Assembly: GCA_003345545.1 (NCBI GenBank)
Contig: PRDH01000044.1
Coordinates: 96,001-160,000 of the forward strand
Direction of reading: 5' to 3'
Source of the DNA: Candidatus Thorarchaeota archaeon
GTDB taxonomy: Archaea; Asgardarchaeota; Thorarchaeia; Thorarchaeales; Thorarchaeaceae
DNA length: 64,000 bases
Shown: positions 4,729 through 44,803 of the stretch, in pieces
How positions within the stretch are numbered: the first letter of the stretch is position 1
Layout: each line of letters begins with the position of its first letter
Notes under the pieces: model-generated
Told to the model about the DNA's origin: nothing
The model's input: only the letters and a program-made list of their open reading frames with translations
Database searches by the model: none
Program-made: the position numbers and the translations under genes

Positions 4729-4995
4729 CTAATCTACACTCTTTCCATCTTTCTTGTGGGTATACATTATGACGCTGGACACTGTTGTTTTTATTCCATC
4801 AATCCTTAATATATCATTCTTGAGCATGTTTCTAAAGCCTATCACATCATCTGCACTGACTACTGCAACTAAATCGGATTCTCCTGTGACTTCATACACA
4901 TCCGTGACTTCGGGCAACGACGCCAAAGCCTTGGAGACATCGTCTAGGTCTTTCGATTCAACCGTTATGTTTAGTATCACGCTGATTTTTGACAT
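4729..4995 (-). CDS. Stand-alone Lrp/AsnC ligand-binding (RAM) domain protein
   Basis: PEVTDVYEVTGESDLVAVV...IDGIKTTVSSVI signature; no HTH. Confidence 0.85.
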   Translation of the reverse strand: MSKISVILNITVESKDLDDVSKALASLPEVTDVYEVTGESDLVAVVSADDVIGFRNMLKNDILRIDGIKTTVSSVIMYTHKKDGKSVD

Positions 4996-6917
4996 TATCT
5001 GCGCACCACCATGAGTTTCCCGGGGGCGATGGTCGATATGAGGGAAACCATGTCATCATAGCCCTCACGCTTGCCCTTCTTAAAGGCCTTTCCCCGGACA
5101 ACTATCACAAAGTCATACTGATCAGATATGGCAGCCTCGGTCACTATCTTTTTCGGAGATCCAACATGTACTACTTCCTTGGTCTCAAATCCAGAGGATT
5201 TGAGTTCTGCGGAGATGCTTCTCAGATCGGAGCTGGCGAGTGTTTTGTATTCACTTGCCATTGCGAGCGGCAGCTTCCATTTGTCAGTCGAGATGATGCT
5301 CATGAGAGTGAAACGAAATCTGGTATCAAAACTGCTCTGCAATGAGTCCACGATTGTCTCCTTCTCTTCAGGTCGAATGAGAACGAGTGCATTCATCTTG
5401 TATGTCATGGCCTTGATGCTAGAGCCGATATCTCGACTGAAGAGTGGCTTCCCAATTCTGCGCCGATATAGAACATATATCAGAATGCCGATTCCAGTCC
5501 AACTGAGTCCCAAGAGACGCCCCATTGGATGAAAGATAATGACCAAAAGCCAAATGGATGAACATGCTATGATGCCAACAAGACTGGGAATTGGAATCTC
5601 GTATATCTTTTCATTGATGTTTAACCTGATGGCCAGTGGCACCTCCCAGGAGCGATGTGCCTCCGTATCTGTCTGCCGCAAGACTATCAGAGAGACATTG
5701 ACCATCAGGTAAGAGAGAAGAGCTCCAAAGTTGTAGAGATCGGCTACCCAGTCAAGTTGACCAATGAGTGCCATCACCGCGCCGATAGAGCCAAACACAA
5801 CAATGGTCCTGATGGGAGTTCTGGTCCTAGAATTGACCTTTGAGAACCATTTCGGCAACAGACCAAAGTTGCCCATTGAAAACACAACTCTCGAAACACC
5901 AATGACTCCCGTATTCGAAGATACAAGGCAAATCGCAAAACCCGTGAAGGCGACAATAGGAAGCAACGTAGTGCCTATCCCAGCAATGGATTGCACAAGT
6001 GCAGAAACCGGATCTTCAAGGTTTGCACCAAGTGTAGCCCAAGAGATCATTCCAAGACTTATGGCAGATAGCCCAACGGCAAACAGAAGAACAGATACAA
6101 TGGACATCTTGGCGGCACGCGGTATGGTTCTGTCAGGTCTCTTTGTTTCTTCTGCAGCCTGAGCAATTGATTCGATACCAATGAAGGAACTCATAGCGAG
6201 AGTCACTGCATAGAGGAAATTCTGATCACCGTAATTGGTGCTCCAGATATAGGCGATATGCCCAAATGGATCAGGAGCGCCCCTAATTGAGATCTGCACA
6301 CCAAATAGATCCAGATTGAAGGCAAGCAGCATCCCCAGAACCATAATCGATGAGAGCACTACGATATTCAATGCAACCATTGTCATATTGAGCGTGGATG
6401 CTTCCTTTATGCCCGCTATGTTGATCCCGATGAGGACAAGCACAATGGCAAAGGCGACAAGACCTATGGCATTCACAGCCACTTGTAGGCCCAAGATTGT
6501 GAAGGTAAATGTAGTCAAGGCGAGCACGGGAAAGAAGAAAGTGAGATAGCCAGTTGTGGCGATAGCAAAGAGCGCTGTGCACACCGTATAGTCCAGCATC
6601 ACCAACCACCCTGCAAGAAAGCCTGCAAAGTCATTGAATGCCTTCATGGCATAGACATGTGCACCGCCTGCGTAGGGATAGGCGGTTGCTAGTTCAGCAT
6701 AGGCTAAGCCTGTGGCTATGTACGTTACAGATGCGATGATGAAGGCCACAGGAGCCCATCCAGCAGCATAGGCAGCAACTAGACCCAGTGCAACATAGAT
6801 GTCAGCACCTACATCCGCATATCCCATTGCAAAGGACCCGAACCAACCGATATCCCTCTTGAGAGAGACCTTAGTCGGCTTGCTCTCGGTTCCTTCAACA
6901 GAGGTCAAGAACAGCAA
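4995..6917 (-). CDS. APC-family amino acid permease with C-terminal USP-like domain
   Basis: LKRDIG, GADIY, YAELATAYPYAGG, GIESIAQAAEE, SRVVFSM, about 12 TMs, soluble USP-like tail. Confidence 0.9.
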   Translation of the reverse strand: MLFLTSVEGTESKPTKVSLKRDIGWFGSFAMGYADVGADIYVALGLVAAYAAGWAPVAFIIASVTYIATGLAYAELATAYPYAGGAHVYAMKAFNDFAGFLAGWLVMLDYTVCTALFAIATTGYLTFFFPVLALTTFTFTILGLQVAVNAIGLVAFAIVLVLIGINIAGIKEASTLNMTMVALNIVVLSSIMVLGMLLAFNLDLFGVQISIRGAPDPFGHIAYIWSTNYGDQNFLYAVTLAMSSFIGIESIAQAAEETKRPDRTIPRAAKMSIVSVLLFAVGLSAISLGMISWATLGANLEDPVSALVQSIAGIGTTLLPIVAFTGFAICLVSSNTGVIGVSRVVFSMGNFGLLPKWFSKVNSRTRTPIRTIVVFGSIGAVMALIGQLDWVADLYNFGALLSYLMVNVSLIVLRQTDTEAHRSWEVPLAIRLNINEKIYEIPIPSLVGIIACSSIWLLVIIFHPMGRLLGLSWTGIGILIYVLYRRRIGKPLFSRDIGSSIKAMTYKMNALVLIRPEEKETIVDSLQSSFDTRFRFTLMSIISTDKWKLPLAMASEYKTLASSDLRSISAELKSSGFETKEVVHVGSPKKIVTEAAISDQYDFVIVVRGKAFKKGKREGYDDMVSLISTIAPGKLMVVRR

Positions 6918-7049
6918 CTCCAGTGCCGAAATAATAGTGCAGTCGCTGAGATTCCTGTTTATGTACTTACTGCTGTGAGTGTGACAATCGAATCAGCACA
7001 ACTTCTGACAAGACAGGATCTGGCGAGGTTCAAAGTGCAAGGAAGAGAG

Positions 7050-7151
7050 GGCCCAGGGGGGGATATTCGAGCATCACAGGATTCGTAATGCCTATCGAAC
7101 CCCCTTCAAGGGAGCCACAATCCCTTATGCTGCCGGTACACCACCTAGGCC
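7050..7151 (-). tRNA. tRNA-His(GTG) with 30-nt T-loop intron (7064..7093, position 59/60) and encoded G-1; CCA not encoded
   Basis: Acceptor (G)GCCTAGG/CCTGGGC-C, anticodon arm AGGGA-TT GTG GC-TCCCT. A strict bulge-helix-bulge is present; splicing restores GGGGG-TTCGATT-CCCCC. Confidence 0.92.
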
Positions 7152-7369
7152 ATGGCTTATCCTTGTCAGGACTCACTCATCCGTTGATAAGGAATTTCTT
7201 ATTAGCTTATCCATCATTTTGCTGTTTCTCTATGCCAAATCTTTATTCTCGCAATACTGCTAAGAATCAGACTGGACAAGATGAAGAATGAAAGCAACAG
7301 ACTGCTTTTTGGACAGCAATATATAAAAAGCCACAATTGAATATTCGGGCAAAATAAACGAAATTCTAG

Positions 7370-8963: not shown

Positions 8964-9085
8964 AACTTGTTTTTCTTATTCGTTGTTACTAGATGGCTTT
9001 TCCGCTCTGGGCTGTATTTGAAAACCTGAGGTTTAGTAACTTCCAAATAGCAGTGATTTGTTGAGTATGGTGAGGATATGTCACA

Positions 9086-9640
9086 ATGGAGAAGATGATC
9101 TCAGCAGTTGACAAGAAAGCAAGTATGCGCAATCTGGCTGTATTCACCGCCATGAGTCTAGGTATCATGCTAGTCATGTTCTACGTGACACAGATACTGG
9201 TCTACGATGTCTATGGCGAATTCGTCATGCCAGACCTCCGGCTTTCATACAGCATCCTGGATATTCAGACAATCTTCTCACTAGTAGGTCAAGAGGGCAT
9301 GATTGCTTGGGAACAGGTTCACCTGCTTGATTACATACTTCCACTGGCCTACTCACTTGCCATAGCCTTTGGAATCATGTACGAGTTGGGAAGAACGTAT
9401 CCTGAGAGAAACGGTCTGAAGAAACTAGTATTGATCCCGCTTCTTGGATGTATCATGGACTACCTAGAGAACTTGCTCATTCTCTCTCAAATCCTTTCAT
9501 ACCCCAATCTCTCAGAGCCCATCATTATGCTTGCGAGCATTTTCACAACTATGAAATGGATTTCCATGGCCCTAGGTTTCGCTGCAATCTTGGGTTTCTT
9601 TGTGGTCATAGTATACAGGAGAATCTCATCTCGTCAGTAG
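9086..9640 (+). CDS. Membrane protein (4 TM), conserved hypothetical
   Basis: PDLRLSYS, LDYILPLAY, DYLEN motifs typical of a widespread membrane family. Confidence 0.75.
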   Translation: MEKMISAVDKKASMRNLAVFTAMSLGIMLVMFYVTQILVYDVYGEFVMPDLRLSYSILDIQTIFSLVGQEGMIAWEQVHLLDYILPLAYSLAIAFGIMYELGRTYPERNGLKKLVLIPLLGCIMDYLENLLILSQILSYPNLSEPIIMLASIFTTMKWISMALGFAAILGFFVVIVYRRISSRQ

Positions 9641-9865
9641 TTGAACGAAAGAGCTCTCTCTGTAATGGAGCGACGGGGGACGCCATTTCAGCAGGGACAT
9701 TGGCTTGTATACTGCTGAGAAGGAAGATTTCACTTCAGAGATGAGAGGAAGGGCCGTTTCAAAGTCCAGAAAGCATAACACAGGATGAACACTAATCACT
9801 ACTTTCTTAATACGTAAACATTATACGCTGCAAGACACCGGCCTCGCCAGTCTGGAGCAGATGCA

Positions 9866-11044
9866 ATGTTCGAGGAACAGGGAATGGACAGGGACAAGAT
9901 TCTGGAGATCCTTGACACGCTTTTAGCGAATGATGCCACATATCAGACAGGACGTCCTGTCGCATCCATGTCAACAATACCCCATAGAATAGGTTCAGAG
10001 GTCTTCTCAAAGACACTTGAGAAGAATGCAGGTCGGCTTCATACTTTCAAGGGCTCTGGCAGAGTAGAACAGGAGGTCATTGCGATGATTGGAAACCTCC
10101 TCAACTTGAATACACCCTTTGGCACAACGACTTCGGGTGGGACAGAGTCGAATATACTGGCAATGTTAGCTGCCAGGGAGTCATCGAAGAAGATAACCAG
10201 ACCAGAGATCATTGCACCAAGAACCATCCACTTCTCAGTAGACAAGGCTGCATGGTTGCTCGGAGTCAAGTTGATCAAGACATCTGTCGACAAAGAATAT
10301 CGTGCGATACCGAGGGCAGTGGAGTCCAAAATCACGAAGAATACGGTCGGGATGTTTTGTACAGCGGGTACGACTTACCTCGGACAAGTAGATCCTATCG
10401 ATGAACTGGGCAAAATTGCGCACGACCACGGACTCCCACTTCATGTTGATGCTGCCTTTGGAGCGTTTGTCTTGCCGTTCCTCAAAGATCTTCATGAAAC
10501 AGATATCGAGTTCGATTTCAAAGTGAACGGAGTCACAAGCATCAGCTCTGACCCACACAAGATGGGTCTTGCACCCATTCCTGCAGGGTGTATCATCTTC
10601 AGGGAGCAGCAGTCTCTAAAGGCTATTACCCGGAAAGTGCCATACCTTCAGGGGGCGAGTTCAAAGCAAGCCACCATCCTCGGGACCAGACCAGCGGCAT
10701 CCATTTTGGCAACCTGGGCCGTTATGAAACATCTAGGCAGAGAAGGATATCGAGAAACAGTGAAAGAGTGCATGAGAAGGACACGTATTGCAAAAGATCG
10801 CATCAACAGGAATCCTTTGCTCAGGAGTGCAATAGAGCCTGTCATCAACATCATTGGAATCAAGAGTAAGGAAGTAGCATTGGACACACTTGTGCTCAGA
10901 TTAGAAGCCAAGGGTTGGAGTGTATCTACATCCCCATTTCCGCCAACTCTGAGACTTATCGTGATGCCACATGTGACTGAGGGGGCTCTCAACGCGTTTC
11001 TGAACGATCTCGATGAGGCGGCTACGACGATACCTGCGGAGTAG
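9866..11044 (+). CDS. mfnA: PLP-dependent L-tyrosine/L-aspartate decarboxylase
   Basis: TSGGTESN, HFSVDKAA, HVDAAFG, SDPHKMGLAPIPAG, GTRP. Confidence 0.9.
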   Translation: MFEEQGMDRDKILEILDTLLANDATYQTGRPVASMSTIPHRIGSEVFSKTLEKNAGRLHTFKGSGRVEQEVIAMIGNLLNLNTPFGTTTSGGTESNILAMLAARESSKKITRPEIIAPRTIHFSVDKAAWLLGVKLIKTSVDKEYRAIPRAVESKITKNTVGMFCTAGTTYLGQVDPIDELGKIAHDHGLPLHVDAAFGAFVLPFLKDLHETDIEFDFKVNGVTSISSDPHKMGLAPIPAGCIIFREQQSLKAITRKVPYLQGASSKQATILGTRPAASILATWAVMKHLGREGYRETVKECMRRTRIAKDRINRNPLLRSAIEPVINIIGIKSKEVALDTLVLRLEAKGWSVSTSPFPPTLRLIVMPHVTEGALNAFLNDLDEAATTIPAE

Positions 11045-11052
11045 AATGATCG

Positions 11053-11397
11053 CTACGCGGACTTGATGGATTCCAACTCCTCTTCTAACCCGATAATGCG
11101 CTCATTGAGCTCGAGCATAGTGTTCAACAAAAGAGAAACAAGATAGCCATAGTTGACCACGTACTTGTTCTCCTTTCGGTCGATTATGTTTGCTTCCTCG
11201 AGTCTCCGTGCCGCGTTCGTTATGGACTGCTTCGAAACTTTTCGCTCATTAACAAGTTGGTCGACAGTCTTTCTGACTTCTCTGGGCTCAACAGGTTCGC
11301 CTTTCAGACTGTTGAGAAGGCTATGGAGAACCATTAGACCAGCACTCATCCGTGGATTGGCAAGTTTCACAAAGGCAACATCAAGATCAAGTACCAT
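11053..11397 (-). CDS. Winged-helix protein with C-terminal coiled coil
   Basis: VSKQSITNAARRLEEANIIDR wHTH pattern and a heptad tail. Confidence 0.65.
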   Translation of the reverse strand: MVLDLDVAFVKLANPRMSAGLMVLHSLLNSLKGEPVEPREVRKTVDQLVNERKVSKQSITNAARRLEEANIIDRKENKYVVNYGYLVSLLLNTMLELNERIIGLEEELESIKSA

Positions 11398-26597: not shown

Positions 26598-28208
26598 ATG
26601 CCTCTTCTAGATGTGACCACCGGAGGTACTCAGTTGACAGAAGAGGCAACATCTGAACTGTGTCGATCCTGCCAGAAGAACAGAGCAACCCACATGTGTG
26701 AAGACTGCGGAGCAGCACTTTGCTTAGAATGTCTAGATAGCAGAACCACTGAGTATAGTGTATGTGGAGACTGTCACCACTCTCTCGGAGAAGCCATACC
26801 TGGGGAGAAATTCGAGAGCTGTCCTGAGTGCAAATCTGAGAACCTCACCAAGGGAAAACGTACTATTGATATTTGCGCTAGGTGTCACTCGGTTCGGGTC
26901 GTTGTCCTTGAGGATAAGAGAAGGACACTAGCCCTTGAAATGCGCCATGCCGTCATGACAATTCAGTATGGACATACCAAGCTTCGCGAATTCAACAGCA
27001 AACTCAGTGTCACTAAGCGTCTATTGGTGTCGCTCAGGATGGCGAATTTTCTCCATTACAAGTGGCTCGAAGAAAAGATAGAGGCAATCCAAGAGGAACT
27101 GCCAGCAATCAAGAACCGAATCGGAAGTCAGGCAGAGATAGTAGCCAGAAGGATGTCTGCTGAAACCAAGAACTTCATAGACTATGCTCTTTGGAGCCCA
27201 TCCCAATTTCCATTCATTGAGGGAATAACCAACAGAATCACAGAGCTCGGAATCTACTACAAACAAAACGTTGACGAGGCAATCGAGTCCCTCAGAACCA
27301 CACTGAAGGATGTCAAGAGGCAATTGGATGGTCTCGATTACTATAGGAATCACTTCACAAACTTCTACGAACATAGCCAGCTCTCTGTCGGAGAGCTCCC
27401 AGTGTGCGCTCTACCAGACGTGAAAGTAGCAGGAAGTGATTTCCTCAAGAACGACAAGGCCCTAGGAACACTGTACCTGACAAATAAGAGGCTCTTATTC
27501 TTGGCTGAGACTGGAAGAGTCCGCAGAAAGATGGAAACAATCTTCGATTTTCCGCTTCTTTATCTGAAGTCGATAGAGGAGGACGGGCGGTTTCGAAAGA
27601 GGCTAGTCCTGAAGCTCAAGCAGGGCGATGTGAGAATATCTTGTTCGGACCAGACAAAGAAGGTCTTACCAGACTATGTGGAGATCGCTCGCAAGTTCGA
27701 TAGGTATGTCCAGACGGACATGCAGAGAGTGCGCAAAATCGAGCAAGAAGAAGTCAGTATCAGCGATGTGAGGCTAAAGATCGAAGGGATGGTCTATTCA
27801 CTACTATCACCGAACAAGAAACAAGACGATGCCACAGCAATCGGGTCAGACCTTCGGTACCGAACCCAACCTTGGTCCACGTCCCAAGTTCAACCAAGGG
27901 AGATTCCTTATGGCACAGGCTACACGTCCCCGGAATTCTTCAGAAGGGATTTGGAGAGAACAATTGGCCGGAGCAGCCAGCCGCAAAATGGTGACATGCA
28001 ATACCGACCAAGCGAATCTATTGATACCCTTCAAAGAAACTCGGAGTCCATCTATGGAGCCATACGAGAAACTGTACACTTGTTGAGAGATGGTCGCTTA
28101 GTGACAGAAGACTTCATTCGAAGGTACAAAGATCTCATGAGAGATTCCTATCTCAACAGAAGAGAGATTCAGCGCCTCTCAAGAGAGTCCAGAGATCAAT
28201 TCTGGTAG
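26598..28208 (+). CDS. ESCRT-associated multidomain protein: B-box/FYVE-like Zn fingers, coiled coil, GLUE/GRAM-like PH domain, steadiness box
   Basis: Six CxxC pairs in aa ~22-96; long heptad region; GTLYLTNKRLLF...PLLYLKSIEE PH/GLUE motif; C-terminal AIRETVHLLRDGRLVTEDFIRRYKDLMRDSY resembles the Vps23/TSG101 steadiness box. Confidence 0.7.
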   Translation: MPLLDVTTGGTQLTEEATSELCRSCQKNRATHMCEDCGAALCLECLDSRTTEYSVCGDCHHSLGEAIPGEKFESCPECKSENLTKGKRTIDICARCHSVRVVVLEDKRRTLALEMRHAVMTIQYGHTKLREFNSKLSVTKRLLVSLRMANFLHYKWLEEKIEAIQEELPAIKNRIGSQAEIVARRMSAETKNFIDYALWSPSQFPFIEGITNRITELGIYYKQNVDEAIESLRTTLKDVKRQLDGLDYYRNHFTNFYEHSQLSVGELPVCALPDVKVAGSDFLKNDKALGTLYLTNKRLLFLAETGRVRRKMETIFDFPLLYLKSIEEDGRFRKRLVLKLKQGDVRISCSDQTKKVLPDYVEIARKFDRYVQTDMQRVRKIEQEEVSISDVRLKIEGMVYSLLSPNKKQDDATAIGSDLRYRTQPWSTSQVQPREIPYGTGYTSPEFFRRDLERTIGRSSQPQNGDMQYRPSESIDTLQRNSESIYGAIRETVHLLRDGRLVTEDFIRRYKDLMRDSYLNRREIQRLSRESRDQFW

Positions 28209-28212
28209 TACT

Positions 28213-28830
28213 CTACATCCCCAACTCACGTTCTAAGGATTTGATGTCATCCTCTAGAGACTCAATCTCGCCAAGGGGTTTCTTTACTGCAGCAGCGTCT
28301 GTAAGACCTGCTTCTATGTCAATCTCCTGCATTGCAGACGTGAGATCTTCAGACGAGATCTCCATAGTCGAGTCAAGAGCCTCATCGGATATGTCCGTTT
28401 CAATCTCGAATTCTTCAAGGCGTCGAGCAATCTCGTCAACGTTCGCGACGACCTTTGTCGAGTCAGTAGATTCGCCCAGCATGCCAAGAATCTTCGCCAC
28501 TTCCTGAAGAGCTAGAGAGGTCTTTGCCGACGTCTGAGCACGATTCAGGTGTGCAAGGATTTTTAGAATCTGAAGTCGTGACTTGTCGACGGAGAGCGCG
28601 TAGCGTCTGAAGCGGATCATCTCGGTAGCATAGGTTCGATATGCGTCAACCTGCCCGCCCTTCCGCGCACGTACAGCCCTGGCGCGTGTATCCTGTTCCT
28701 CTTTCTCGAGTTTGTTTCTCTGTCGAGCAAGCTGTTTGCTCAGGATTCTTAGACGACTGGAAATCTCACCAACATCTGGTTTCTTCTTACCCCAGGCAAA
28801 TGCCTTTCTTATTGAAGCCAAAGAATTCAC
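28213..28830 (-). CDS. ESCRT-III (Snf7 family, Vps2/24/46-like)
   Basis: Basic N-terminal helical hairpin, acidic C-terminal half, terminal amphipathic MIM1-like helix (LEDDIKSLEREL); adjacent to Vps4. Confidence 0.85.
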   Translation of the reverse strand: MNSLASIRKAFAWGKKKPDVGEISSRLRILSKQLARQRNKLEKEEQDTRARAVRARKGGQVDAYRTYATEMIRFRRYALSVDKSRLQILKILAHLNRAQTSAKTSLALQEVAKILGMLGESTDSTKVVANVDEIARRLEEFEIETDISDEALDSTMEISSEDLTSAMQEIDIEAGLTDAAAVKKPLGEIESLEDDIKSLERELGM

Positions 28831-28983: not shown

Positions 28984-30213
28984 ATGGCCGGATCGGATAG
29001 TGATAGATTGGACCTGGGGCTCAAGACTCTGCTCGACAGAGCCATAGAACTCGATCAGAGAGGAATGAAGAACGAGGCGTGCCAATTATACCTCAAGGCA
29101 AGTAAGATATTGATCAAGCTTTCAAACTCAGCCGCTCTTCCAACCATAAGAAAACACTACTTCAATCGCGCCCAAGAGTGCGTTGATAGGGTTAGATTCC
29201 TCTCAGGCATTAAGAAGAAATCGGCAGGACCTGTTGATGGTCTTGCTGAACCGCCAAAGGCAGACTTTGGTCCTGCCAAGCCTACGCGAATCAAGCAAGC
29301 ATCCAAGGTTGAGCAGGAGATTGACGAGGATGCGAAACGACTGCGAGAGATGATCTCGGACACAATCATCTCTGAGCGGCCCAAGATCAAACTGTCTGAA
29401 GTTGCTGGACTCGAAGACGCAAAACAGGCGATTAATGATGCAATAGTCACACCAATGAAACATCCGGAGCTATTCAAGGGCAAGGCAAGACAGCCATGGA
29501 GAGGAATCCTATTCTTTGGACCAGCAGGCTGTGGAAAGACACTCATTGCAAAAGCAGTGGCATCAGAGGTGAACGCGACATTCTTCAATGTCTCTGCCGC
29601 GAACATCGTCAGCAAGTGGTTGGGAGAGTCCGAACGCTTGGTCATGAGCCTCTTTGAACTGGCCAGAAAGAATCAGCCTGCAATCATTTTTGTTGATGAG
29701 CTCGACTCTATCGGTGTGTCGCGCTCTGGAGATGATGTTGGGGGAGAACGACGACTTAAGACCCAACTGCTTACAGAGCTTCAGGGTCTTGGAAGCAATC
29801 CAGAAGACAGAATCACTCTGATTGGAGCCACGAACCTACCGTGGGAGCTGGACTTTGCACTTCGGTCGAGATTTGAGAAGAAAATACATGTTCCACTTCC
29901 TGGACGAGAGGCAAGAACAGCAATCTTTGAAACCCATATGGAAGACATCGAGGTTTCTCCGACCATTGACTACGAAGAGATGGCAGATCTGACCGAAGGG
30001 TACAGTGGTCGAGACATAAGCATCGTCTGCCGAGAGGCAGCAATGGAACCAATCCGAGACCTTCAGCGCACTGGAAGAATGGACGATGAGAGAGAAATCT
30101 TGGACATCCGGCCCGTTTCAAGGGAAGACTTCTTGAGCGCCATCGAGAACATCAGACCTGCAACTCCCCCAGAGGATGTCAGGAAATACATTGACTGGGC
30201 GGAGGGTTCTTAG
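28984..30213 (+). CDS. vps4: Vps4 AAA+ ATPase with N-terminal MIT domain
   Basis: MIT (RAIELDQ...EACQLY...AQECVDRV), VAGLEDAK, PWRGILFFGPAGCGKT, SKWLGESE, FVDELD, ATNLPWELD, TEGYSGRDI. Confidence 0.93.
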   Translation: MAGSDSDRLDLGLKTLLDRAIELDQRGMKNEACQLYLKASKILIKLSNSAALPTIRKHYFNRAQECVDRVRFLSGIKKKSAGPVDGLAEPPKADFGPAKPTRIKQASKVEQEIDEDAKRLREMISDTIISERPKIKLSEVAGLEDAKQAINDAIVTPMKHPELFKGKARQPWRGILFFGPAGCGKTLIAKAVASEVNATFFNVSAANIVSKWLGESERLVMSLFELARKNQPAIIFVDELDSIGVSRSGDDVGGERRLKTQLLTELQGLGSNPEDRITLIGATNLPWELDFALRSRFEKKIHVPLPGREARTAIFETHMEDIEVSPTIDYEEMADLTEGYSGRDISIVCREAAMEPIRDLQRTGRMDDEREILDIRPVSREDFLSAIENIRPATPPEDVRKYIDWAEGS

Positions 30214-30216
30214 AGG

Positions 30217-30954
30217 TTGGGCATGAGAGAGAAGCGGAAAGAGAAACGAAGAGAAGAGGCCCAGGAAGAACCAGAAGATACTGAGGTGGTCAGGACAGTT
30301 CAGGAGGCAGAGACCTCCCCAGTAATAGAGGAAGACATTCACACACCCGAGGTCATCATTGGGAAGCCCGATGCGACTGAAGTAGTCTCTGAGAATGAAG
30401 CTGTCACAGACGAAACCGAAGCAGAGAAACTTCAGAGCGTACCAGTCGTTTCGATGCCCCCTTGGGGTAGCCCCGAGGAGAGCGAATGGATGTACGGTGT
30501 TCCTCCAAGAGAAGAGGATAGAATCTTGTGGGCAGAGGAGTGGTCAGATTATCTGCTTCAATGGGCAGAACTCAAACAGATCCATGTACTATCCCTTGCT
30601 GTGTTCATTAGTGAACCTCCTTTCAATGATTTGAGAAACAAGGTCGACTCCTTCAAGATGATTTCCGAGGTCCTCATCGATAAGGAGGTGGCGGAATGGA
30701 GTGATAGGCGAAGACGCCAACTCAGAATCTTTTGGAAACCACTTGAGGACTGGGCGGACCTGATATATGAGTGGTCCCTGAGAACAGGAAAGCTAAGACT
30801 AGATGTGAAGTCCATAGTGATACAGGAGTCAAAGGAGAGCTTTGCAAAGCTTCCTGAAAGAGACCTCCATGTTGTTATGGGGTTGATGGTAGAGAAAGGA
30901 TTTGCTGAGTGGATTGATAAGAAGAAGGGCGCAGTCCTGGTATCGACTCAGTAG
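30217..30954 (+). CDS. Vps25-like ESCRT-II subunit with acidic disordered N-terminus
   Basis: PP motifs (MPPW, VPPRE), WSDYLLQW, IFWKPLEDWADLIYEW, LMVEKGFAEW match tandem Vps25 winged helices. Confidence 0.8.
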   Translation: MGMREKRKEKRREEAQEEPEDTEVVRTVQEAETSPVIEEDIHTPEVIIGKPDATEVVSENEAVTDETEAEKLQSVPVVSMPPWGSPEESEWMYGVPPREEDRILWAEEWSDYLLQWAELKQIHVLSLAVFISEPPFNDLRNKVDSFKMISEVLIDKEVAEWSDRRRRQLRIFWKPLEDWADLIYEWSLRTGKLRLDVKSIVIQESKESFAKLPERDLHVVMGLMVEKGFAEWIDKKKGAVLVSTQ

Positions 30955-31772
30955 GCTCCTTGGTTTGAGGTTTCAGGTTTATCTCGTGCTCTGAGACCCG
31001 GAAAATAATACCTCCCGCCTGTTGAGAAACGGATATCTGCAACTGCCATTCCGGTTTCTACGAGGCTCGTGAGCACTTGACGTGCATGATCTTCGGACCA
31101 TTTGAGCTGCATCATCACGTCTTCTACTGAAACATGACCTTTCGATGCTGCCAGGTTGACCACATCAGCTTGATCACGGCGGAGTTCGAGCGGCCTTAGC
31201 TCTACGACCTTCACTCCTCCACGAAGAGTCCGAATGCCAGGCAACAGACCGTTCTCTGACACCCGATTGACTGCCTCGATTACATCATTGTATGTAACGG
31301 ATTTCATCTCAGGAAGACGGCGTACGACCTCGACAATGAGCTCCGCAAGCCCCATTAGTCCCTTCGAAGCGTGCTCAGTCGCAACATCAAGTATTGCTAA
31401 GCCAATATAATCATAGTACTGGTCAGCATTCATTCCCTGATAGGACGTTGCGGAAGCACTCTCGCGGAGCCTGAGAAGGTCAGCAGCATCTGGAAAGACC
31501 TCTGTTATCCGTTCGCCTGCAAAGAAGCCCCCGACATCCAGTCCGCTTCGCTTCAGATTATCAATATGGCTCCGCACCTCCTGAAGGAGTGCTTGTGATT
31601 CTCTCTGGAATGATCCAATATCAACAGCACCCAGGTCATACAGCTTCTTCAGCTGGTCAAGCGTGGCAATGGAGGCATAGAGTTCTGTTTCGAATCGCTC
31701 CTGCATCGGTGATAGTTCCTTCTCTATTCTGAAAGTCCGCACAATGCTGACAAGACTCATTAAATTGCTCAT
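30948..31772 (-). CDS. Vps28 N-terminal domain fused to Vps22/Vps36 (EAP30) winged helices
   Basis: ELYASIATLDQLKKLYDLGAV...F...QALL resembles Vps28-NTD. YYDYIGLAIL...GLMGLAEL...VTYNDVIEAV...PLEL..DQ..V...KWSEDHARQVL..LV..G.A..D....YYFPGL matches EAP30. Confidence 0.8.
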   Translation of the reverse strand: MSNLMSLVSIVRTFRIEKELSPMQERFETELYASIATLDQLKKLYDLGAVDIGSFQRESQALLQEVRSHIDNLKRSGLDVGGFFAGERITEVFPDAADLLRLRESASATSYQGMNADQYYDYIGLAILDVATEHASKGLMGLAELIVEVVRRLPEMKSVTYNDVIEAVNRVSENGLLPGIRTLRGGVKVVELRPLELRRDQADVVNLAASKGHVSVEDVMMQLKWSEDHARQVLTSLVETGMAVADIRFSTGGRYYFPGLRARDKPETSNQGAY

Positions 31773-43068: not shown

Positions 43069-43493
43069 AATGACTTTCTGATTCGTTTTGACATCCGATC
43101 CAACTCGTCTCGCGGAGCCATTGAGTCGTGATACCCTGGTGGAAACTTGAAACCAAATGGGTCGGCATTGTTTCTGGGAATCACGTGAAAATGCAGGTGT
43201 GGCACGTCTTGCCCAGCACCCTCACCATTTGCTATGACATTGATTACACCGTCTGCTCCCGTCGCTTTCGATACTGCCTTTGTCAGCTCTGACAGTTTCA
43301 CAGACATATGAGAAAGAACATCATGGTCAACATCCATCATGTTGACAAAGTGCCTTTTCGGTATGAGTAGACAGTGTCCGGTTGTTATTGGAAAGACATC
43401 CATGAAGGCCATACAGATGTCATCCTGATATATCACGGAGGATGGCACATCACCTTGAACAATCTTGCAGAAGATACAATCCTTTGAACTCAT
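43065..43493 (-). CDS. HIT-family nucleotide hydrolase
   Basis: CIFCKIV, GHCLLIPKRH, AGQDVPHLHFHVIPR. Confidence 0.95.
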   Translation of the reverse strand: MSSKDCIFCKIVQGDVPSSVIYQDDICMAFMDVFPITTGHCLLIPKRHFVNMMDVDHDVLSHMSVKLSELTKAVSKATGADGVINVIANGEGAGQDVPHLHFHVIPRNNADPFGFKFPPGYHDSMAPRDELDRMSKRIRKSF

Positions 43494-43612
43494 GTCTCGG
43501 TACTTTGAATAAGTGCGAAATAAAGAATTCGAAGTGCTTGAGTGACGTGCGCACAAGTCTAATTAGCGTGATTGACCCGAATGAGAATAACAGGTTACTT
43601 GGGTGCATCCTC

Positions 43613-44803
43613 TTGAGCGGAAGAAGGCCAAAGGTTTACTTCGACCAGACACAAAATGAGCGCGGAAAGCTGGACAGTACATACTCTGAACTGGGTCAAA
43701 TCCTGAGGGATAACGACTTTGACGTAGAACCCTATACAGAATTCATGCTTCTTGCCAAGAATCTGAGAGAAGCGGATGTCCTGGTATTCGGATGTCCTAA
43801 TAGCTCCAAAGTACGACCTCCTGAGATAGATGTTTTGCAGAAGTACGTCAAGAATGGGGGCGGTCTGATGTTACTATCGCTCTCAGGTGGCGATAGAGGC
43901 CTCATGAATAATATGTCACAGATATCACAGGAGTTTGGAATCTCTTTCGACAATACAGCAGTCAAGGATGACAGGAACAACGCGGGGATTCCCACCATGC
44001 CAGTCATCAGCGACATTGTCGCTCATCCGACGACCGAGAACGTGGGAGAACTTCTCATCCCTTCTGCCTGCAGCCTTCATGTCAGTGGCAAGGCAGTCGC
44101 TCTGGCCCGGACATCACAGGTGGCAGAACCAAGTAGGGCGCCCATTGTTGCAGCCGCAGAGGTTGGAAAAGGCCGTATAATGTGCATTGGGAGCTATGAG
44201 ATCTTCAGAAAGGGCGGGGGTCTGAAGCACGAAGGGAATACGACATTTGCAATTAATGCATTCAAGTGGTTGAGTAGAGAACTGCAGGCAACAAAGCCCA
44301 GCACTGCTGCCACGGAGCAAACAAAGACAGAGAGTGCCAAGGCAAGAGGGGAGCTAAGAGAGGCTGATACTGTGCCTACAGCGGAGATCGAAAAGACACT
44401 TAGAAGGCTGGTCAATGCTGTGGTTGACCTTCAGAAAGACATCTCCAAGATGAATGAACAGGTCGGGAATGTTGAATCCCATATTGAGCTTCTTAGAAGT
44501 CAGTTCCAAGAGTTTGCAGAGAAGACACAACAACAACTGGGTGTCATGATGCCAGCAAAGCAGTTCAAGACTCCCGAGGAGAATAGGGCTGCAGATATTG
44601 AGGCAGACATCAGATCCCTACTAAAAGAGACAGAATCAATTCAGCAGCTCTGCGAACATATCGAACAGAGGTATGCATCTGGAGCCATGGCAAAAGAAAC
44701 CTATACCGAACAGATGGAGAGTCTAAACGCCAGAATCGTTAGTATAGGGAAGAAGATTGAGAAGAAAGAGAAGGAGCTTGAACAATTCAAGACGGAGGGC
44801 TAA
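43613..44803 (+). CDS. IFT52/GldG (GIFT)-like domain plus coiled coil
   Basis: VYFDQTQNE, EIDVLQKYVKNGGGLMLL...GG....NNMSQI..EFGI.FDN.AV resembles the IFT52 N-domain; long C-terminal heptads. TTG start assumed. Confidence 0.7.
   Translation: MSGRRPKVYFDQTQNERGKLDSTYSELGQILRDNDFDVEPYTEFMLLAKNLREADVLVFGCPNSSKVRPPEIDVLQKYVKNGGGLMLLSLSGGDRGLMNNMSQISQEFGISFDNTAVKDDRNNAGIPTMPVISDIVAHPTTENVGELLIPSACSLHVSGKAVALARTSQVAEPSRAPIVAAAEVGKGRIMCIGSYEIFRKGGGLKHEGNTTFAINAFKWLSRELQATKPSTAATEQTKTESAKARGELREADTVPTAEIEKTLRRLVNAVVDLQKDISKMNEQVGNVESHIELLRSQFQEFAEKTQQQLGVMMPAKQFKTPEENRAADIEADIRSLLKETESIQQLCEHIEQRYASGAMAKETYTEQMESLNARIVSIGKKIEKKEKELEQFKTEG

Follow-up and report, generated by a model that had tools for sequence, protein, structure and literature searches.

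The ESCRT locus in the analysed stretch of Thorarchaeota DNA (64,000 nucleotides, below called the window) raises the question of how a protein with the winged helices of the ESCRT-II subunit Vps22 has come to begin with what looks like a part of the ESCRT-I subunit Vps28. Evolutionary biology still asks how the cargo-recognising ESCRT-I became linked with ESCRT-II and ESCRT-III before there were eukaryotes, and one Asgard order appears to have solved this coupling by a covalent link. The reading preferred here, to which we give a probability of about 0.8, is that the product of this gene is a chimeric subunit of ESCRT-I and ESCRT-II, which originated from the merger of adjacent vps28 and vps22 genes and whose head docks on a steadiness box. 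The gene and its parts are as follows:

30948..31706, minus strand: fused vps28N-vps22WH gene, 252 aa and stop (from the open reading frame and the starts of homologues)
31452..31706, minus strand: Vps28-type N-terminal domain, aa 1-85 of 252, with a hairpin (H2-24/H30-53) and short helices to about residue 80 (hhalign, AF2, Foldseek, VIA)
31431..31451, minus strand: variable linker, aa 86-92, presumed fusion junction (low pLDDT, unconserved columns)
31197..31427, minus strand: winged helix 1 of the Vps22/EAP30 tandem, aa 94-170 (Pfam, SNF8 alignment, AF2, Foldseek)
31005..31178, minus strand: winged helix 2 of the Vps22/EAP30 tandem, aa 177-234 (same evidence)

The longest open reading frame, 30948..31772 on the minus strand, encodes 274 aa from an upstream ATG at 31772. 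This is the frame that an earlier note on this DNA had claimed; it exists, and its probable start is shorter. About 100 close homologues of the fused protein are ~252 aa long and have as their first residue the equivalent of M23, while the 22 extra N-terminal residues of the 274-aa frame are unconserved among homologues. Because the close homologues begin at this position, the start codon is likely to be at 31706 rather than at 31772. The purine-rich stretch 'agaaggaa' before the ATG at 31706 may be the ribosome-binding site of the gene, and the AT-rich 'gataatact' upstream of 31772 its promoter. All homologues with a named source are labelled Thorarchaeota or Promethearchaeota, except one labelled Lokiarchaeota.

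The C-terminal ~150 aa is a Vps22/EAP30 winged-helix tandem, as had been claimed for this half of the protein. Pfam EAP30 (PF04157) matches aa 110-246 of the 274-aa frame at E 1.4e-13 (51.5 bits vs a cut-off of 26.8), and human SNF8 residues 94-239 align with the same half at E 9e-16 when the protein is compared to the PDB using phmmer. The full-length AF2 model (pLDDT 78) displays two winged helices, and its best Foldseek matches are 3cuq_A (E 6e-9), 2zme_A, and 1u5t_A, that is SNF8/Vps22 and Vps36. The EAP30 match covers profile positions 82-218 of 219, and the N-terminal helical domain of Vps22 (profile positions 1-81) is missing.

If the protein is analysed at full length only, it could be taken for an ordinary Vps22 whose helical N-terminus is similar to Vps28 by chance or by helical composition. 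Pfam then reports EAP30 alone, and VPS28 becomes visible only when the N-terminus is scanned separately. With the full model as query, the first places in Foldseek go to SNF8, Vps22, and Vps36, in alignments of ~235 columns. At an rmsd of 15-17 A these matches are uninformative when it comes to the N-terminus, and since the ESCRT-II chains swamp the full-length search, a separate model of the N-terminal domain was needed. A ferritin match of the N-terminus, obtained with phmmer for the whole protein against the PDB, was taken as chance.

Scanned alone, the N-termini of 16 of 20 family members match Pfam VPS28 (PF03997), with a best E of 6e-4, and none of the 20 matches the N-terminal part of EAP30. 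The N-terminus of the window protein gives E 0.16 over profile positions 3-50, and its 12.2 bits, like the 22.5 bits of the sister-family protein P0132, fall below the Pfam gathering threshold for PF03997 (24.5 bits). In the sister-family protein, profile positions 2-78 of 188 are covered. A profile of 92 N-terminal residues was then searched against 1.84 billion representative proteins (E<=1e-3). It gave 50 matches; 29 of the 40 scanned contain Pfam VPS28, several of them being full-length Vps28, such as P0130 at E 3e-12, and only two clusters, both from the window's order, carry EAP30. Proteins combining UQ_con/UEV, Vps23_core, and VPS28 were also retrieved. Against the PDB this profile matches yeast Vps28 N-domains at E about 0.1, and once enriched with Asgard Vps28 sequences it finds yeast Vps28 at E 1.4e-4 and human VPS28 at 8e-3.

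A direct comparison of the two candidate identities was made using hhalign. The Thor N-terminus aligns with the N-domains from a diverse set of 13 Asgard Vps28 proteins at a probability of 99.5 % (E 4.4e-22, 82 columns, 38 % identity), and with the helical domains from a likewise diverse set of 13 Asgard Vps22 proteins at 0.2 %. The columns aligned in the Vps28 alignments are those of the motif ELYxxIxTL..L.K.Y followed by F...E.I...FP.A...L, far beyond chance. The earlier note had seen this likeness by eye (aa 23-100) and had held that a match to the helical domain of ordinary Vps22 would refute its claim; with 99.5 % for the one and 0.2 % for the other, this claim stands. In the window's genome, a six-frame search with PF03997 did not flag the fused gene, and searches for Vps23_core and CdvA gave sub-threshold matches only. 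The only PF03997 match in the six-frame search (E 0.1) was to the C-terminal hairpin of a GIFT-domain protein encoded at 43442..44803.

The AF2 model of the N-terminal domain alone (pLDDT 81, pTM 0.67) forms a hairpin of helices 2-24 and 30-53 followed by short helices. The top ten Foldseek rows obtained with this model are all human VPS28 (6vme) or yeast Vps28 (2caz_B, 2f6m_B), and human VPS28 6vme superposes with a TM of 0.73 and an rmsd of 2.6 A over 81 columns. A VIA structural search against representatives gave Z 11.3 for 6vme_E, a chain confirmed to be VPS28, and Z 9.4 for 2caz_E, over 78 aa, with all other rows at Z 8.0 or below. Vps22 and Vps36 chains are absent from the top 50 of both structure searches. 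The N-terminal ~85 aa is thereby confirmed to be a Vps28-type N-terminal domain and not the helical domain of Vps22. The hhalign contrast, the retrieval of Vps28 from 1.84 billion proteins, and the failure of the N-terminal model to retrieve either Vps22 or Vps36 all speak against an ordinary Vps22, which we consider highly improbable.

Only the N-terminal part of Vps28 is present. Pfam VPS28 coverage stops at profile position 50 in the window protein and 78 in the sister-family protein, so that the C-terminal four-helix bundle (profile ~87-188) is missing and the protein is not a full Vps28. After residue ~92 comes the EAP30 winged-helix tandem, in agreement with the earlier claim that this tandem has taken the place of the bundle. 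The sequence between the two parts behaves as a linker: pLDDT is below 50 at residues 83-86 in the full AF2 model and at 82-92 in the N-terminal model, and the columns for aa 86-92 are unconserved in the family alignment (A1).

The Asgard Vps22 family cog.002769 ('Vps22#') has been described as fused to a steadiness box (Makarova 2024, mBio, PMC10936438), and the window protein displays the SB-wH-wH arrangement of that family, with an N-terminus of the steadiness-box type followed by two wH domains. This description could also mean that the N-terminus is a generic steadiness-box hairpin, ancestral to Asgard Vps22 and not derived from a neighbouring vps28. The hairpin alone is indeed also similar to CdvA and to the Vps23 steadiness box (Z 7.5-7.7), and Vps23_core occurs among the co-matches of the N-terminal profile. 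The steadiness box of Vps23/Vps37 (PF09454) is a two-helix hairpin of ~55 aa; the superposition of the yeast Vps23 C-terminus on the 56-aa hairpin, Z 7.6-7.7, lies in the range of generic hairpins, and the Vps28 matches are both longer and stronger, spanning in hhalign and VIA the whole 78-82 residues with the helices after the hairpin included. The N-termini of other Asgard Vps22 proteins compare with the Vps28 N-terminal domain or with the Thor N-terminus at only 0.2-0.3 % (hhalign), and these proteins match EAP30 from position 1-2. In addition, a separate Vps28 beside vps22 is missing only in the Thor order. The exemplar published for the steadiness-box evidence in cog.002769 is itself a Thor protein (PMC10936438). 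A hairpin common to all Asgard Vps22 proteins is regarded as unlikely, and an origin of the head from vps28 is preferred.

The distribution across Asgard archaea points in the same direction. Pfam VPS28 was detected in 103 of 151 sampled Asgard genomes, but in 0 of the 26 from the window's family, where EAP30 is found in 25. In most genomes of this family the EAP30 match starts near profile position 82, while in other Asgard families, with reading frames of ~250 aa, it starts at position 1-2. When our own HMMs for the Vps28 N-domain and the Vps22 winged helices were run on fetched Asgard loci, the former occupied a separate reading frame in 57 non-Thor loci, and so did the latter tandem in 58; in loci with both, vps28 is the next gene upstream of vps22, on the same strand. 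By contrast, a single reading frame holds the two domains in each of the nine loci that come from the window's order. One strong N-domain match is found in 81 of the 87 genomes of the order and in 17 of its 17 genera, nearly always in a reading frame of 250-280 aa, and the sister family of the order (G112) also has the fusion, P0132 being 88 % identical to the G112 protein. No stand-alone Vps28 was found in the searched genomes of the order; as the genomes are MAGs, the window's own being 93 % complete, absence here means not found in those searched. The survey of the taxonomic distribution that the earlier note had called for thus places the fusion in one order, in both its families, with separate genes in the other Asgard families examined.

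The gene order around the fusion is illustrated by the neighbouring genes in the window:

30217..30954, plus strand: Vps25-like ESCRT-II subunit (Pfam ESCRT-II PF05871, E 2.3e-13)
28984..30213, plus strand: Vps4, with MIT, AAA, and Vps4_C (Pfam)
28213..28830, minus strand: ESCRT-III, Snf7 family (Pfam Snf7, E 5e-10)
26598..28208, plus strand: 536-aa Zn-ribbon/coiled-coil/PH-like/steadiness-box protein of the Znr_PH_CC_SB type, candidate docking partner (likeness to ThorAB25_08990, by eye)
27999..28205, plus strand: steadiness-box hairpin, the last 69 aa of the 536-aa protein (conservation, weak Vps23 profile matches, complex model)

The vps25 gene is convergent with the fused gene, their tails overlapping by 7 bp, and vps25 stays next to the fused gene, or to vps22, in the loci of Thor and of other Asgards. 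Those other Asgard families whose loci were examined have the order vps4> vps25> <vps22 <vps28, while Thor has vps4> vps25> <fused <aspS.

It is difficult to see this arrangement as an assembly or frameshift artefact joining two genes, since 81 of 87 genomes of the order, as well as more than 100 protein clusters from metagenomes, have a single reading frame of ~250-280 aa; such an error is scarcely credible. A fusion of neighbouring genes in frame is suggested by the adjacency of vps28 and vps22 elsewhere, by the one fused reading frame in 81 of 87 genomes, and by the failure to find a stand-alone Vps28. From the distribution and the synteny we infer that in an ancestor of the window's order adjacent, co-directional vps28 and vps22 genes merged through a single in-frame deletion. 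Lost with it would have been the spacer between the genes, the Vps28 C-terminal bundle of ~110 residues, and the Vps22 helical domain of ~95. On parsimony and from unrooted quick trees, a fusion here is favoured over a fission elsewhere, because a fission would need to create both of the missing domains, and these are present also in eukaryotes. Quick ML trees place the fused genes from the two families in one group, with an SH-aLRT of 99 for the winged-helix part and 92 for the N-terminal domain (on a long branch). SH-aLRT is the only support calculated for these trees, and as they are unrooted and have an unresolved backbone, no donor lineage is claimed. The 'Rosetta-stone' reading of the earlier note, that the gene is a fusion linking ESCRT-I and ESCRT-II, fits the synteny: wherever the loci of other Asgard families were examined, the parents are separate genes lying side by side at the same locus.

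It is possible, but at present rather a tentative idea, that the deletion removed exactly those domains that formed the ancestral, pre-Vps36 contact between ESCRT-I and ESCRT-II, namely the bundle at the C-terminus of Vps28 and the helical domain of Vps22. The Thor gene would then pinpoint this interface, and in Thorarchaeia a merged ESCRT-I/II complex would wire a Vps23-like Zn-ribbon/PH/SB protein directly to Vps25 and ESCRT-III. One Asgard family (f20) has a Vps22 with the helical domain, yet Pfam VPS28 was not found there, and a search for the Vps28 N-domain, run without a positive control, found nothing in this family. Since f20 has the helical domain without a detectable Vps28, this domain is more than a docking site for Vps28 and has other roles as well.

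In eukaryotic ESCRT-I, the Vps28 N-domain packs on the steadiness-box hairpins of Vps23 and Vps37 (2F6M, 2CAZ, 6VME). In the fused protein, the Vps28-type head would dock on a steadiness-box hairpin belonging to a Vps23-like subunit, for which the best candidate is the Zn-ribbon/PH/coiled-coil/SB protein of this locus. The winged helices, judging from what is known of the family, would bind Vps25, the product of the adjacent gene, and Vps25 would then recruit ESCRT-III and Vps4. The covalent link in the fused protein would in this way stand in for the non-covalent contact between ESCRT-I and ESCRT-II.

The candidate partner gave nothing significant in Pfam. Its steadiness-box hairpin is highly conserved in 25 orthologues, and a profile of the hairpin has weak matches in the PDB to the C-terminus of yeast Vps23 (2f66_A, 2p22_A, and 2caz_A, E 0.4-1.2). 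Compared by eye, the 536-aa protein closely parallels the printed fragments of ThorAB25_08990, named 'SB' (Hatano 2022, PMC9192718), and the Znr_PH_CC_SB class to which it belongs is described in Makarova 2024 (PMC10936438). A modelled complex of the fused N-terminal domain and this steadiness box scored 0.79 vs 0.19 for the best control, a pass that may reflect likeness only, since solved Vps23-C:Vps28-N structures (2F6M, 2CAZ, 6VME) resemble the model. Among 80 solved complexes 58 reach the mark used for such models, and among 110 mismatched pairs 2 do so. At least 97 % of the contacts agree between runs, the partner has a pLDDT of at least 80, and the modelled interface coincides with invariant columns in the N-terminal domain (10-20) and in the steadiness box (30-50). 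The model speaks for docking of the fused head on the 536-aa neighbour but is no demonstration of it.

The head may also serve in dimerisation, as the Thor 'Vps22' interacts with itself in a yeast two-hybrid (Y2H) assay (Hatano 2022, PMC9192718). Its main role could even be self-association, in which case it would take over from the helical domain the pairing of subunits in a homodimeric ESCRT-II stalk. The helical domain, which pairs Vps22 with Vps36 in eukaryotes (PMC10936438), is absent here, and steadiness-box hairpins pack on each other in ESCRT-I. The Y2H self-contact might, however, come from the winged helices, and the neighbour's steadiness box gave, together with the head, a modelled heterocomplex that passed its controls. 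Self-association as the main role is somewhat doubtful, although the two functions are not mutually exclusive, and docking on the steadiness box is retained as the preferred function of the head. In line with this, an interaction involving the Thor steadiness-box protein was also reported in the Y2H study (Hatano 2022, PMC9192718), and the Thor protein set of that paper includes no separate Vps28. A Thor BAR-SB protein matches 2J9U at 84 % (Makarova 2024 Table S3, PMC10936438), and a divergent domain similar to the Vps28 C-domain may be found elsewhere in Thor, in this protein.

When it comes to known systems, the architecture, a Vps28-type steadiness box on a Thor Vps22, was published in 2024 and is not new; aa 1-70 of the Thor Vps22 KXH75178.1 match PF03997 (VPS28 N-terminal domain, SB) at 99 % in HHpred (Makarova 2024 Table S3, PMC10936438). 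The printed sequence of the Thor 'Vps22' ThorAB25_09030 closely parallels the window protein along its length (Hatano 2022, PMC9192718). The published Thor proteins (ThorAB25_09030; KXH75178.1) have the same architecture and locus order, and the window protein is another member with nothing substantive that is different.

What is added here is that the fusion is limited to one order, that it replaces both the Vps22 helical domain and a stand-alone Vps28, and that its position is exactly that of the neighbouring vps28 and vps22 genes of other Asgards. In the accessible text of PMC10936438 and PMC9192718 it is not stated that the Vps28-type head is restricted to the order, that other Asgard Vps22 proteins have an ordinary helical domain which is replaced in Thor, that a stand-alone Vps28 is missing from the order, or that the fused gene lies at the vps28/vps22 neighbour site. 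These additions are refinements and not a new kind of system, and together they give a testable hypothesis on which domains form the ancestral interface between ESCRT-I and ESCRT-II.

Compared to its two parent families, the protein shares with Vps28 (PF03997; 2F6M, 2CAZ, 2P22, 6VME) the N-domain, with its hairpin, short helices, and ELYxxIATLD...FP.A motif, but it lacks the C-terminal four-helix bundle by which Vps28 contacts ESCRT-II. With Vps22/SNF8/EAP30 (PF04157; 3CUQ, 2ZME, 1U5T) it shares the tandem winged helices and a gene adjoining vps25 and vps4, but not the N-terminal helical domain found in other Asgard and in eukaryotic Vps22 proteins. The UEV-Vps23-Vps28 fusion of Heimdallarchaeia (Hatano 2022, PMC9192718) likewise joins in one chain ESCRT subunits that are separate in eukaryotes. 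While the Heimdallarchaeial fusion connects two subunits of ESCRT-I and mostly keeps the Vps28 C-domain, the Thor fusion joins ESCRT-I to ESCRT-II and drops this domain.

Ahead of the conserved start codon of the fused gene, a further 22 codons (31707..31772, minus strand) are open in this genome, without conservation among homologues, and the longest or annotated ORF probably over-extends the gene at its 5' end. At its other end the fused gene meets a gene encoding an ESCRT-II-like protein:

30217..30954, plus strand: Vps25-like protein, Pfam ESCRT-II match at amino acids 106-193

At its N-terminus the Vps25-like protein carries an acidic extension, about 100 amino acids long, which precedes this match, and the stops of the two genes overlap by 7 bp, tail-to-tail.

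The Vps22 of f20, another Asgard family (G042, G059, G066, G095, and G105), gives a full-length EAP30 match, and neither Pfam nor the N-domain profile picked up a Vps28 in the f20 genomes searched, which are 76-91 % complete. Within the order of the window, several genomes encode ORFs of about 1000-1050 amino acids that weakly match the Vps28 N-domain profile at its positions 16-56 (E 2e-4 to 9e-4), and these may be additional steadiness-box proteins. Examples of the matches are:

G183:C135:2542-2664
G134:C8:59282-59404
G093:C45:14856-14978

A possible second ESCRT-related cluster is found at locus L081 (G000:C19:56000-72000), on a separate contig from the window:

4962..5552, minus strand: 196-aa coiled-coil protein, C-terminus weakly CdvA/SB-like (E 0.0035)
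6502..7353, minus strand: small GTPase of the Arf family (E 2e-19)
8995..11349, plus strand: 784-aa protein, Vps22-like WH tandem at its C-terminus, found with our own WH HMM

For the 784-aa protein our WH HMM gave an E-value of 8e-19 (on locus L004), while Pfam EAP30 gave only 0.024.

Two further proteins of the window end in a hairpin:

43442..44803, plus strand: 453-aa protein, IFT52 GIFT domain (Pfam E 2e-15), coiled coil, C-terminal hairpin
26598..28208, plus strand: 536-aa protein, N-terminal Cys-rich Zn ribbons, coiled coil, PH/GLUE-like segment, C-terminal steadiness-box hairpin

The GIFT-domain protein may be another adaptor with a steadiness box, because its hairpin is the sole match in a six-frame PF03997 search of the genome (E 0.1). 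In the 536-aa protein the steadiness-box hairpin is strongly conserved, and a Pfam scan of the protein gave no significant match. This protein is a member of the Znr_PH_CC_SB class (Makarova 2024, PMC10936438), and it closely parallels the sequence fragments printed for 'ThorAB25_08990 SB' (Hatano 2022, PMC9192718).
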